Positions 27,001 through 30,000 of a stretch of 64,000 nucleotides of DNA are shown here, piece by piece. The stretch is from a candidate division WOR-3 bacterium. GTDB lineage: Bacteria > Hydrothermota > 32-111. The DNA lies in assembly GCA_039804105.1 (NCBI GenBank), contig JBDRZU010000001.1, positions 1,088,001-1,152,000 on the forward strand, in the 5' to 3' direction. How positions within the stretch are numbered: the first letter of the stretch is position 1; each line of letters begins with the position of its first letter. A program made the position numbers.

Positions 27001-30000
27001 ATTTTTATAAGATTTGACATTTTTTCTCCTTTTATTATTTTAATATTTGAATGTTATAATATTAAAATTAAAAAAATCAAGAGGGGAATTTAAATTCCCC
27101 TCTTATTATTTTATTCTTTATTTTCTTTTAAGATTTTCTTTTGCAACAACTTCAGACCATTTTTTGCCGCCCATGGTCTCAGTGATATAAACTATCATAC
27201 TATAGATGTTGGCAACTGGAACATATGTGAGCCACTCTATTAGTCTTCCTTTTGTTTCCTTCATCATCTGCGCTGTTGTATAACCTCCAACATATCCGAT
27301 GCAACATCCTTCAACTCCAGCATTTTGGAAACCAACAAAAGCATAGTAAACTCTTAAAATTGGAAAGAAAAGTTGTAATAACTGTAAAAGGTCAACATTG
27401 ACTGCTTTTTCGTTAGCAATGTATCCCATCCTTATATCAAAAATTCCAAGAAGACATGGGACTATTCCACCATTCTGTTTTTGAATTGAGAAGACGGGAG
27501 CTGCAAACAATGATGGTGTTAACAATGAGATCAAAAGAAAGATAATAATAATTTTTTTGGTCATTTCTCCTCCTTTATGTTATTTTTATTTTATTAAAAA
27601 ATTTTTTTAAAGTCAAGAGAAAATTTTAAGGATGATTGTCCGCAATTTGATCCAACTATATTTTCTTTCAATTCACCTATTGACACTATGACATCAAAAC
27701 CATTTTTGTTAAGTTGTTTTTTTATATCTTCCATTCTTTTATAAGAATCAACACATAAATTATTTTTTATAGATTGATATGTCGGGTTTACAGGTGTCAA
27801 TTTTATGATAAAAGTTTTTTTATCAAAGTAAAGTGCAATTTTTTCAAAGGAGATTTCGTTTGACTCACTTACAGGAAAATTTAAAACTATCTTTCTTTTT
27901 CCAGGTGAATAAAATTCTTTTCCATATTCATTCAAAAATACAAAATTTTCTTTTTCTATTGGAATCGTTTTATCTCTTTCGTTCGTATTGGTGGAATATA
28001 TAGAAAACTGTAGTTGGAAATCGACAAAATTTTCTCTGATTGATAAAAGTTTTTCAAACCATTTTCTTCGATTTTTCGGAAACACAGTTGATATACACGG
28101 TATACAATTTTTATACTTTTTCTTTAATTCTTTAATCACCTCCAAAACATCATCGTTGAAAGATGGTTCTCCCATCCTTGCGAACTGAACTTTGAATTTC
28201 TTAAATCTGTTTGGACTCAAATTTCTTTCATTTATCATAAAATCTATCTGATACATCATTTCATCAAAAGTTAAATTCCTTGCGAATTCGTATCCGCTAT
28301 CACAAAAAACACACCGAACAGGACAGCCAACTTGTGTTGAAACAATTAGAACCCATTTTTCGTGATTTTTGCCAGAAATAACTGGTTCAACATCAACGGA
28401 TTCTATAAATTTTTTGTCTTCCGTTTCAAAGACGAGAACCTTTGAAACTTTTACCATTTCATTTTTTAACAAAAGATTCATTCTGCCTCCTTTCAGATGA
28501 GAGTTTCATTGCAAGTTTTACTCCATCAGCAAAAGAAATACTCCCCTGCTTGAAATTTTTGCCTTTCACACTACCGCATAAAAGAACTCTTTTACTCTTG
28601 TTTACAATCTGTGGAAGATTTTTTCTTGAACCTATACACAAAAGAATATCATCAAATACTCTCTCAAAGTGTTTGTTTTTACTTTTGAAAAACACTCTGT
28701 ATTTATCAACCTCAGTCTTATTTATGTATAAAATCTGCGAGAAAGGATAAATATCTTTGACAAATGTTTTTACTTCTTCCAAAAGTTTTTTGTTCACTTT
28801 CCTAAAGTTCCCTTTGGAAATAATGGTTAGTTTTTTTCTTTTTTTTGTTAAAGTCAAAGATTGATCGAGTGCAACCTCTCCACCACCTATAACACAAATA
28901 TTTTTCCCTTTAACTTGATCAAAACGATTCTTAAGGTTTAACTCCCGAAATTTTTTTAAAACTTTTTCCTTTCTCCCAGTTGCAATTATACAATATTTCG
29001 TTGAGTATTCGTTTTTTTCAGTTTTTACGATTACAAAACTTTTTCTTACTTCTATTTTTATGCATTTTTCAAACTTTATTTTTCTTTTATATTTTTCCAA
29101 TTGTTTTTCAAAGTGAGAACATAATCTATTCCCTTTAACATCACAAAAACCCGGAAAATTTGTTACTCGGTGAGCATACCAGATATCACCACCTATTCTA
29201 TTCTGTTCAAGGAGTAAAACTTTTTCAAAATCTTTTAATATCTGTAAAAAGAATCCAATTCCAGCACATCCACCACCAATGATTATAAAATCATATTTTT
29301 CCATCAAAAATATCCCTTGAATTTATTATTTTTGCAAAACCTCGTTTCATATTTTCAATAGAATATCTATGGTGTTTTAATTTTCTAGATTTCACAAGAT
29401 CCTCAACTACATAATTTTCAAAACCATTTTCAAACGACTCTCTAACATTACTTTCAACACATAATTCGGTCATTACACCAACAAAAAAGATTTGTTTGAT
29501 TTTCAAAAGTTTTAAAAGTTTTTTAAAACTTTTTTTTTGAAAAACCGAATAGGAATTCTTTCTTACAATATAGTAATTTTTGGGTAAATATATCTTTTCA
29601 TAAAGTTCAAGATCGTTTCCATAAGGTAAATGTTTCCACCATTTGTTAAAATTTATCTTTCTCTTTGACGGAATAAATTGTAAAAAAATTATAGGACTTT
29701 TATTTTCTTCAAATATTTTTATAACTCTATTTATTTTTTGGGCTAAATTTTCTGCTCCCCTGATGTAGGATTTAGAACTTTTTTCAAAAAAATAGTTTTG
29801 AACATCAACTACTAAAAGCAAACTTTTTCTCATAAAATTAAACACCCCCAAAAAAAAGAGCCATCCGGTCTGGATGGCTCTCGCCTGACATAACCTGATT
29901 GGATTATATATTTTTAACAAAAAAAATCAAGATATTTATTGTTGATAATTTATTCTTTTTTGGTAAAATAAAAAATTAGATTTAAAAAGGAGAGTTATGC

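Follow-up and report, generated by a model that had tools for sequence, protein, structure and literature searches.

Here we describe a three-gene cassette, encoding a radical SAM enzyme, a flavoprotein and a hydrolase, that we read as an anaerobic supply of pABA (or of the arylamine used by FolP) in microbes that possess the other folate genes and no PabABC, with the RNA leader before it acting as an ON switch at pABA shortage. We put the probability of this reading at roughly 55%, and ligand, switch direction, product and mechanism are inferred from what is shown here: gene content, residue pattern, fold, the leader and the genes with which it associates. An earlier note on this DNA had proposed that the enzyme acts on a small molecule of folate or pABA metabolism. 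That remains the best reading because the radical SAM enzyme fails the tests for RlmN and Cfr and because the leader elsewhere heads pabA-pabB-pabC.

Organization and distribution of the cassette

The window analysed here is a 64,000-nucleotide stretch from a candidate division WOR-3 genome (WOR-3 is "the phylum" below). The hydrolase, flavoprotein and radical SAM ORFs all lie on the minus strand and overlap, preceded by a structured leader:

29903..29930, minus strand: sigma-70-like promoter (TTGATT, 16 nt, TATAAT) with 10/12 consensus matches; 7 nt separate its end from the leader
29867..29895, minus strand: candidate riboswitch aptamer, a conserved hairpin of 29 nt that contains a bulged A and an internal loop (fold -7.1 kcal/mol)
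29850..29882, minus strand: intrinsic terminator and U tract (-20.8 kcal/mol); the 3' half of the aptamer candidate doubles as the terminator 5' arm
29291..29833, minus strand: isochorismatase-fold cysteine hydrolase, 180 aa, triad D10, K92, C125; accessory cassette member
28459..29304, minus strand: FAD/NAD(P)H flavoprotein of TrxR fold that lacks the CxxC redox centre, 281 aa; probable electron donor
27594..28481, minus strand: RlmN-fold radical SAM enzyme without the N-terminal helical domain, 295 aa
28344..28346, minus strand: I46 codon, at the position of RlmN resolving cysteine C118 (Cys in 0/111)
28302..28325, minus strand: CxxxCxxC cluster motif (C53, C57, C60) of the radical SAM enzyme, kept in 111/111
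27642..27644, minus strand: C280 codon in SNCGQ, at the position of RlmN methyl-carrying C355 (Cys in 110/111, one gap)

The overlapping ORFs, together with the recurrence of both partners beside homologues, bear out the three-gene operon described previously. The interval given in the earlier note spans the three cassette genes and omits the leader (29895-29850).

Orthologues of the enzyme occur in 70 of 271 phylum genomes, as had been reported, and a search at E<=1e-10 returned 3067 homologues (previously 3072), including records named Thermococcus and Deltaproteobacteria. Among 40 phylum loci, 29 carry both partners, nine the flavoprotein only and two neither, so that the previous tally of 23 with both, 14 with one and three with none was not reproduced. 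The corresponding counts for 80 named loci, which partly repeat phylum contigs, are 55, 20 and 5. Cultured carriers include Fervidobacterium, Pseudothermotoga and Thermococcus, and the lineages with the cassette are presumably anaerobic. No conserved neighbours beyond the cassette were seen in 77 named loci. A few loci do place it beside folate genes: in L341, folC-folP diverge from the cassette with purN, purH and folD on the opposite side, in L069 folP follows 80 bp downstream on the same strand, and in L374 folD is near. Close proximity to folP is restricted to 2 of 154 loci, and both of these cassettes (L341 and L069) are leaderless.

The radical SAM enzyme is an RlmN offshoot

In an alignment of 111 homologues, a few rows of which are one contig fetched twice, C53, C57 and C60 are Cys throughout, and C280, which aligns with RlmN C355 and Cfr C338, is Cys in all rows except for one gap. 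The column equivalent to C118, assigned by alignment to the same genome's own RlmN, corresponds to I46 and contains Ile in 90 rows, Met in 10, Val in 5, Leu in 5 and Asn in 1. The sole other Cys-rich column is position 129, with Cys in 48/111. Residues K97, R102, K197, K227, Q156, Q158 and N201 do not vary across the alignment, Q99 occurs in 110/111, and Ala and Arg occupy the positions of RlmN's M176 and G177.

A structural model (pLDDT 93.9) reproduced the reported top match to an RlmN at TM 0.76 and 20% identity. Superposition on E. coli RlmN (Z 27.9, rmsd 2.6, 266 aligned residues) places model residue 1 at RlmN residue 80, so the RlmN N-terminal domain is missing. Viperins are among the next fold matches, at Z of about 14-15 and far below RlmN. 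Profile scores also fall below the curated family cut-offs (58 bits against 290 for TIGR00048; 43.7 against 550 for TIGR04432), and ESM Atlas matches were unnamed radical SAM clusters only. Overall, the enzyme has CxxxCxxC in an RlmN-type barrel and a cysteine at the methyl-carrier position; with no Cys at the C118 position in 111 homologues and no N-terminal domain, it is an offshoot of RlmN and neither RlmN nor Cfr. Alignment and structure thus uphold the earlier description of such an offshoot.

Some database labels would instead make this protein a divergent rRNA or tRNA methyltransferase, in keeping with its RlmN fold, its cluster motif, the retained equivalents of C355 and E105 and the names of the source records. 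We consider this very improbable given the lost C118 equivalent, the missing N-terminal domain, the low TIGR00048 score and the complete RlmN encoded elsewhere in the same genome. The second cysteine is described as resolving the protein-RNA crosslink (PMC4689488), and Cfr C105A is reported to give no methylation (PMC2836569).

Partner proteins

The flavoprotein does not qualify as a thioredoxin reductase TrxB: no conserved Cys pair occurs across 99 homologues, CxxC is also absent in the alignment to 2q7v, and the TrxB profile score is 98.9 bits against a cut-off of 343. The gene adjoins that of the radical SAM enzyme in 113/120 loci, and the two are fused in L367 and in 7 of 17 long homologues. 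These motifs and fusions fit a probable role as electron donor to the radical SAM enzyme; complex prediction for the pair returned no answer (score 0.00).

The hydrolase matches PF00857 (E 1.8e-33) and retains the catalytic triad, with K92 and C125 in 68/68 homologues and D10 in 65/68. It scores far under every NCBIfam cut-off and has conserved motifs of its own. Its gene adjoins that of the radical SAM enzyme in 84/120 loci and is absent from the other 36, some of which are cut by contig ends.

A candidate riboswitch linked to pABA genes

Sigma-70-like sites are frequent in this region (17 found versus 11.8 expected), and we call the promoter by its position and by similar boxes before other leaders. 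The terminator is the sole terminator-like site in 27400-30050, where 1.0 is expected by chance, and it is retained in relatives with differing loop and arm sequences. Covariation is hardly a test of the hairpin, given its very strong conservation: in 30 sequences 97% of cells pair, a level that 151/500 shuffles reach too, and only one pair changes on both sides; in a smaller set 15/500 shuffles pair as well. Most paired bases were fixed in the search pattern. A single-sequence scan of genome contigs found no match to the leader; an alignment-based scan succeeded.

The earlier note had called this element the pab riboswitch. Both the element and its association with pab genes are confirmed; its standing as a known riboswitch is not borne out, since no Rfam family reached the gathering score and the best weak match, Phe_leader (27.9 against 55 bits), lies mainly on the terminator. 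The leader is best regarded as a riboswitch candidate. The Na+ (DUF1646) riboswitch was rejected as its identity, as the published account gives it two stems, P1 and P2, whose conserved bases sit at the foot of P1 and in the loop of P2, together with cation-transport genes, and Rfam gave no match. Literature searches on riboswitches for pABA or DHPPP, RlmN offshoots and alternative pABA routes found no published description of leader or cassette. The term "pab" is absent from the main texts of PMC11109978, PMC8632094, PMC6429828 and PMC5737381, whose supplements could hold the motif under another name; one PMC8632094 supplement file gave no match either.

In a gene-blind test, 28 of 120 metagenome pattern matches had a terminator, and all 25 of these with downstream sequence precede pab, SSF, binding-protein or cassette genes: an SSF symporter in 13, the cassette hydrolase in 4, pabB in 4, pabA in 3 and an NMT1-type binding protein in 1, with the gene queries taken from the same metagenome loci as the leaders and the binding protein matched only by itself. 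In L154 and L219, the leader stands with pabA, pabB and pabC in a row. Apart from the cassette, every member of the regulon seen belongs to pABA synthesis or candidate pABA uptake, and the earlier "folate or pABA metabolism" is narrowed to pABA supply.

The same regions bear on a second alternative, a bypass of folate starvation in which SAM, the C280 carrier and flavin reduction would serve to methylate dUMP or another nucleotide with no need for methylene-THF. TrmFO offers an analogy for flavin reduction of a cysteine-methylene adduct, and the flavoprotein could likewise reduce such an adduct in place of the lost cysteine; nucleotide-binding viperins are among the fold matches, and a sister family occurs in fusions with a QueT-like domain and a nucleosidase. 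This alternative nonetheless appears decidedly unlikely: no thymidylate or purine gene was seen in the 25 regions downstream of leaders, ThyX is present in the genome, and the viperin matches, far under RlmN, reflect the common barrel.

Within the window's class, 11 of 18 genomes have the leader pattern, each in a single copy and each with the cassette, and a twelfth cassette genome has a variant leader. By pattern search the leader occurs in 11/190 phylum genomes, all within the window's family, a count that is not proof of absence elsewhere as the patterns miss long-loop variants. The claim that the leader heads the operon only in this class does not stand, as a scan of 100 loci revealed it before the cassette in seven genomes outside the phylum (L075, L077, L078, L079, L084, L085 and L089). 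On the enzyme tree, from which L075 and L077 are missing, five changes of leader state are needed, at least three of them forced by well-supported branches. No match at E<0.03 was found in 94 of the 100 loci or in a set of 38 cassette loci, and the viral contigs searched contained neither the leader nor the main enzyme family.

That the enzyme's function is unrelated to folate, the leader having been acquired by a mobile cassette or sensing a broader signal, would accord with the lack of conserved neighbours, with the absence of the leader from most cassettes and with the concentration of leader-bearing cassettes in one part of the tree. We judge this unlikely, as the leader, with a terminator-like hairpin and U tract, is kept before cassettes on separate branches in several phyla, and two leaderless cassettes adjoin folP.

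A pABA gap in folate synthesis

The window's own genome, which is 85% complete, encodes FolE, FolP, FolK, FolC, FolD, PurN, PurH, ThyX and the separate RlmN, and searches of it found no chorismate-binding protein, PabC family member, DHFR, aroA or aroF. For folE, folK, folP, folC and the missing DHFR this agrees with the earlier note, and a search of 17 genomes turned up aroC in none. A missing thymidylate synthase was rejected as the pathway hole given ThyX. FolP of this genome has about 130 extra N-terminal residues, and by analogy with the reductase-FolP fusions described in PMC1971073, a fused reductase domain may cover the missing DHFR.

A similar gap recurs in a selection of 50 cassette genomes among the 80 named loci: DHPS is present in 48, PabB exceeds the cut-off in none, and 39 lack even a PabB/TrpE-like match. 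In a 191-genome sample of one archaeal phylum, a PabB/TrpE-like gene (the two counted together) is present in 3/38 cassette genomes versus 86/153 others. This exclusion persists when the sample is cut down post hoc to 54 large genomes (2, 21, 18, 13; p 2e-4), fails when the comparison is with genomes that have at least two hits (p 0.08), and is confounded by kinship and probably by lifestyle. DHPS is common regardless (231/271 in the phylum, 183/191 in the archaea), so its co-occurrence with the cassette failed as evidence in the archaea. Most DHPS-bearing phylum genomes have neither PabB nor the cassette, and the hole can therefore be filled otherwise.

Within the phylum the association has the opposite sign, the cassette being positively associated with chorismate-binding genes (31/41). 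The earlier objection that the cassette co-occurs with such genes rather than replacing them is correct as to co-occurrence; the genes annotated are mostly of another type. Five chorismate-binding loci in cassette-bearing genomes comprise four of TrpE type in trp/aro operons (two over the TrpE cut-off, one under it and one called from neighbours only) and one PabB fusion, found in G003 with the cassette in one genome, on a 3-kb contig. With four of five annotated genes TrpE-type, co-occurrence in the phylum is mostly no argument against PabB replacement.

The cassette could instead act on the pterin or folate itself, through ring methylation or modification (as in modified archaeal folates), recycling of damaged folate or removal of excess DHPPP (6-hydroxymethyl-dihydropterin pyrophosphate). 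The folC and folP adjacency is equally compatible with such roles, a pyrophosphate would fit the basic barrel well, pABA-glutamate is a conceivable substrate of the hydrolase, and RlmN-type chemistry would be expected to target sp2 carbons beside ring nitrogens, as in pterin. We find this rather unlikely, as the remaining regulon members seen are pABA synthesis genes and importers with no pterin genes, the archaeal PabB/TrpE exclusion is not predicted, and the hydrolase is missing from 36/120 loci, contig ends accounting for some.

Proposed mechanism and significance

For the preferred reading, pABA supply, we envisage that pABA shortage would cause DHPPP, the pterin half of folate, to accumulate. 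Binding of DHPPP to the 29-nt hairpin would then block the terminator and turn expression on, activating whichever pABA source the genome has, be it pabABC, an importer or the cassette. An ON switch is suggested by the overlap of the aptamer with the terminator 5' arm, and a product seldom activates its own synthesis. The same ON-logic argument was made for HMP-PP (PMC6478431), and by analogy with that riboswitch in thiamin synthesis the leader probably senses the pterin half.

As judged from its anatomy, the CxxC-less flavoprotein would hand NAD(P)H electrons to the [4Fe-4S] cluster. A first SAM would methylate C280 and a second would yield a 5'-deoxyadenosyl radical, and the resulting Cys-S-CH2 radical could attack a small anionic substrate at an sp2 carbon. 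As the resolving cysteine is missing, the adduct would probably come free through oxidation or elimination. What is delivered would then be not a methyl but an oxidised one-carbon group, which might become the carboxyl carbon of pABA; an acylated amine or acid would be liberated by the hydrolase. No chemistry known to us leads to pABA through this set of enzymes, and the exact sequence of C280 methyl carrier, Cys-S-CH2 radical, oxidised one-carbon release and hydrolysis is unlikely. The wider proposal is tentative and falls well short of even odds: a third de novo pABA route, independent of O2 and chorismate, in many bacterial and archaeal phyla, using an RlmN descendant and its methyl-Cys without a resolving Cys under a new 29-nt DHPPP riboswitch class.

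Many genomes examined have dihydropteroate synthase but no PabB, and the cassette is a candidate pABA source for them. If this holds, the enzyme would be, to our knowledge, the first relative of class A radical SAM methylases to act on a small molecule and to work without the resolving cysteine, and its lack of that residue bears on crosslink resolution in RlmN. In its own right, the leader may represent a new riboswitch class, for which the ligand is clearly predicted, and it points to the SSF symporter as a candidate pABA importer family. The cultured carriers open cassette function to complementation testing.

Comparison with known systems

With RlmN and Cfr (TIGR00048, TIGR04432; PDB 5hr6, 3rfa, 6fz6, 9p0p), the cassette enzyme shares the fold (Z 27.9, TM 0.76), CxxxCxxC, the MGEP motif, the E105 and C355 positions and the C-terminal CGQ. 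In contrast, it lacks C118 and the N-terminal helical domain, is only 20% identical, has a barrel rebuilt with invariant Lys, Arg and Gln, and comes with a dedicated, sometimes fused flavoprotein in an operon under a metabolic leader. Proteins of PHROG 24834, from phages and Firmicutes, form a sister family (29-33% identity) that is also without the C118 equivalent and mostly keeps the C-terminal cysteine. Unlike the cassette enzyme, some come as fusions with a QueT-like domain and a nucleosidase or contain inteins, and neither flavoprotein, hydrolase nor common theme was found among their neighbours (58/125 ORFs scanned, 8 viral contigs).

The HMP-PP (thiS) riboswitch, as described in PMC6478431, resembles the leader as a very small conserved element that overlaps an intrinsic terminator, follows ON logic (proposed for the leader) and is associated with genes making one half of a two-part coenzyme; the likeness is drawn from its published description. 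The leader's genes are pab and transporters rather than those for HET-P, no pseudoknot is evident in its model, and no thiamin thiazole gene follows it, with pab, SSF, binding-protein or cassette genes in 25/25. The CADD/NE1434 self-sacrificing pABA synthases (PMC9522330, PMC11965152), the only described chorismate-independent bacterial pABA source that we found, would fill the same pathway hole, but are reported as oxygenases of helical-bundle fold, whereas the folds of the cassette, an iron-sulfur radical system, are unrelated to theirs. No CADD-type heme-oxygenase-like dimetal bundle was found among the three proteins, which match radical SAM, TrxR and isochorismatase folds.

CxxC is likewise absent from FNR-type reductases. 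The cassette flavoprotein shares FAD and NAD(P)H Rossmann motifs with TrxR and with the TrxR-fold ferredoxin/flavodoxin-NADP reductases (PDB 3lzw, 3ab1, 6gas); in contrast to the FNR type, its sequence is nearest true TrxR, most homologues have a GDV...RQ motif, and it is genetically tied to a single radical SAM enzyme. Finally, the hydrolase has the Asp-Lys-Cys triad in common with isochorismatase-fold enzymes such as nicotinamidase (PDB 1ilw), RutB and BiuH, and is set apart from them by its low family scores and its own motifs.

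Cassette composition and distribution

The cassette probably supplies p-aminobenzoate (pABA) at the pathway level, a reading to which we assign a probability of roughly 0.55. It comprises three overlapping genes:

29833-29291, minus strand: hydrolase, 180 aa, Pfam Isochorismatase
29304-28459, minus strand: flavoprotein, 281 aa, Pfam Pyr_redox_2
28481-27594, minus strand: radical SAM enzyme, 295 aa, weak Pfam Radical_SAM match

The enzyme has 3067 homologues at E ≤ 1e-10 and occurs in 70 of 271 genomes of the phylum, the count given in the earlier note. Among 120 loci, drawn from this phylum and widely from other bacteria and archaea, both partners accompany it at 84, the flavoprotein alone at 29 and neither at 7, several of these being truncated by contig ends. 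Based on these counts, enzyme and flavoprotein form the core, with the hydrolase as an accessory; the core pair is fused at locus L367, as it is in 7 of the 17 long homologues. Gene order is shuffled at L073, L074, L125 and L347, with the enzyme first or the hydrolase downstream on the opposite strand, and the three genes thus remain together through rearrangement. Beyond these partners, no conserved neighbor gene was found at the examined loci. The cassette at L102 and L130 has a one-carbon context, its neighbors there being an MttB-type methyltransferase and a protein with a homocysteine S-methyltransferase domain. In the window, the strand continues downstream of the cassette (24950-27564) with genes for a 148-aa protein without a Pfam match, an Rrf2 regulator and Hcp, a hybrid-cluster protein; the 148-aa protein follows the cassette in three loci of the genus. 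Separately, 60010-62945 holds a 16S rRNA gene plus two tRNA genes, while neither 23S nor 5S gave a match within the window.

The hydrolase keeps its Asp-Lys-Cys triad. Thioredoxin reductases are the nearest relatives of the flavoprotein, which lacks their CxxC motif. The window's copy (28459-29304) has Ser at the Asp of the GDV motif, a residue that is Asp in 92 of 99 homologues, and shares only 20-31% identity with its homologues, versus 38-46% for the radical SAM enzyme; it has thus diverged from its family.

Comparison of the radical SAM enzyme with RlmN and Cfr

The predicted enzyme model (pLDDT 93.9) best matches RlmN structures (TM 0.76; Z 27.9), beginning at RlmN residue 80. In an alignment to the genome's own complete RlmN, C280 occupies the methyl-carrying cysteine position and I46 that of the resolving cysteine. 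The cluster cysteines do not vary across 111 homologues; 110 of these keep C280 and none has Cys at position 46, which bears out the earlier description of an RlmN offshoot without the resolving cysteine. E27, K97, R102, Q156, Q158, K197, N201, K227, T229 and N232 are also invariant, and Q99 is kept in 110. Ala and Arg occupy the positions matching M176 and G177 in RlmN numbering. The enzyme scores 58 bits against an RlmN profile cut-off of 290; these features together mark it as something other than RlmN. In fold, and probably in its first steps, it resembles class A radical SAM methylases, but three defining tests came out negative. According to PMC4689488, the second cysteine of RlmN and Cfr resolves an enzyme-RNA crosslink, and methylation is absent in Cfr C105A (PMC2836569). 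RNA methylation, despite the shared fold, is therefore very unlikely for this enzyme.

A sister family, PHROG 24834 (29-33% identity; P0128-P0137, L378-L388), also lacks the resolving cysteine; members show fusion to a QueT-like membrane domain and MTA/SAH nucleosidase, inteins, or location on phage contigs. Two QueT-like/nucleosidase fusions are named Clostridia and Bacilli, and two fusions carry Asn at the C-terminal cysteine position.

The leader and its regulon

Upstream of the cassette, a promoter-like site precedes a 29-nt element (29895-29867), and the 3′ half of this element doubles as the 5′ arm of a terminator. Folded by itself, the element gives a hairpin at −7.1 kcal/mol that contains a bulged A and an internal loop; at −20.8 kcal/mol, the terminator form is much more stable. 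As the candidate aptamer and the terminator would compete, we infer an ON switch. The leader has no Rfam match, and although 97% of cells in its structure pair, shuffles often match that value, making this a weak test.

The pattern occurs once in each of 11 of the 18 genomes of the class, and these 11 all carry the cassette; in G011 leader and enzyme lie on separate contigs and co-occur at genome level. A variant containing a compensatory pair is present in the twelfth genome that carries the cassette. Most cassettes lack the leader, which counts against the pABA reading. In 100 further loci, a covariance model placed it before the cassette at 7 (six at E<0.03, one at 0.07), all with a terminator-like hairpin and U tract. 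By record name these are Edwardsbacteria, a Desulfomonilaceae bacterium, a delta-proteobacterium, a Bdellovibrio-labelled genome, Sedimentisphaerales and two other bacteria, so the earlier restriction of the leader to one class is untenable. On the enzyme tree its distribution requires five changes, at least three of them forced.

A metagenome scan gave at least 120 pattern matches. Among the 120 listed, a gene-blind test found a terminator beside 28; downstream sequence, available for 25, begins with an SSF symporter (13), the cassette (4), pabB (4), pabA (3) or an NMT1-type protein (1). Among the 92 that lack a terminator, 14 precede the same families (one, a branched-chain-type binding protein, matched solely by itself), 77 do not and one is at a contig end. 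At two leader loci pabA, pabB and pabC follow in order. The commonest gene under the leader is the ~540-aa SSF symporter (21 of the 120 listed; first gene at L160, L163, L171, L182, L185, L213, L216 and L223), a candidate for the uptake of pABA or of one of its conjugates. The sole SSF homologue in the window's genome is distant (21-25% identity).

pABA would not be expected to induce pabABC, and the ligand should therefore report pABA shortage. The natural candidate is 6-hydroxymethyl-dihydropterin pyrophosphate (DHPPP), the partner substrate of FolP. The precedent for such a terminator-embedded aptamer is the HMP-PP riboswitch, which senses one thiamin half and induces the other (PMC6478431). 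A DHPPP sensor would govern three pABA sources: synthesis from chorismate, import and the cassette.

Folate context and the missing pABA pathway

The window's genome, 85% complete, has folE, folK, folP, folC and folate-using enzymes, with no match for PabB, PabC, aroA, aroF or aroC. A search of 16 relatives, of which three are 99-100% complete, likewise gave no aroC in any, and 11 of the 12 genomes of the family have no chorismate-binding gene. Among 50 other cassette genomes, DHPS is present in 48 and PabB exceeds the cut-off in none; 11 have a sub-threshold match, mostly TrpE-sized. A folate-free bypass through nucleotide methylation is improbable.

In one archaeal genome folC-folP and the cassette are transcribed divergently, with a transposase and then purN, purH and folD on the far side of the cassette, and at L069 folP lies 80 bp after the cassette. 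Such proximity to folP occurs at just 2 of 154 loci, and the neighborhood signal is therefore modest. The same neighbors would suit modification of a pterin or folate, the least unlikely of the alternatives. L274:1102-2283 encodes a 394-aa FolP with ~130 additional N-terminal residues, possibly a fused dihydropteroate reductase replacing the missing DHFR; ~400-aa open frames are common in the phylum.

Other distributions weigh against a pABA link. DHPS is near-universal in both phyla tested, most genomes of the window's phylum have neither PabB nor cassette, and there the cassette co-occurs with chorismate-binding genes in 31 of 41, the annotated loci being mostly TrpE-type within trp/aro operons. 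A distribution in favor of the link comes from 191 genomes of one archaeal phylum, where a PabB/TrpE-like gene occurs in 3 of 38 cassette genomes versus 86 of 153 others; the comparison is confounded by kinship and counts TrpE and PabB together, and against genomes with two or more matches the exclusion is not significant (p 0.08). A cassette role unrelated to folate is unlikely.

PabB-like genes were seen in two genomes without the cassette, G050 and G073, and in one cassette genome, G003. The G003 gene (L275:197-2005) encodes a PabB fusion of 603 aa; its contig is 3 kb long, no aroC turned up in that genome, and the gene is either contamination or one without its pathway. In other phylum families (L277, L278, L279), trpE-trpG-hisD are the last genes of aromatic operons that have aroF and aroA upstream, and the fetched stretches contain neither trpD nor trpC; this TrpE could conceivably also make aminodeoxychorismate.

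Proposed chemistry and precedents

For pABA supply, the chemistry we consider most likely is itself a long shot. The flavoprotein would most likely reduce the cluster in place of flavodoxin. Retention of C280 suggests RlmN's first steps, in which C280 would be methylated, hydrogen abstracted and the thiomethylene radical added to an sp2 carbon. Judging from the barrel, which is basic and polar, and from the loss of the N-terminal domain, the substrate may be a small anion. Because C118 is absent, the adduct would need another release route, perhaps oxidation or elimination to a hydroxymethyl or formyl group, from which the carboxyl carbon of pABA could derive; the hydrolase might unmask an amide.

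Our search, which two key supplements lay outside, found no published description of cassette or leader. That they jointly represent a new de novo pathway and a new riboswitch class is possible, if doubtful. A chorismate-independent pABA synthase is already known in CADD, reported as an oxygenase (PMC9522330, PMC11965152), whose fold differs from those of the cassette proteins.
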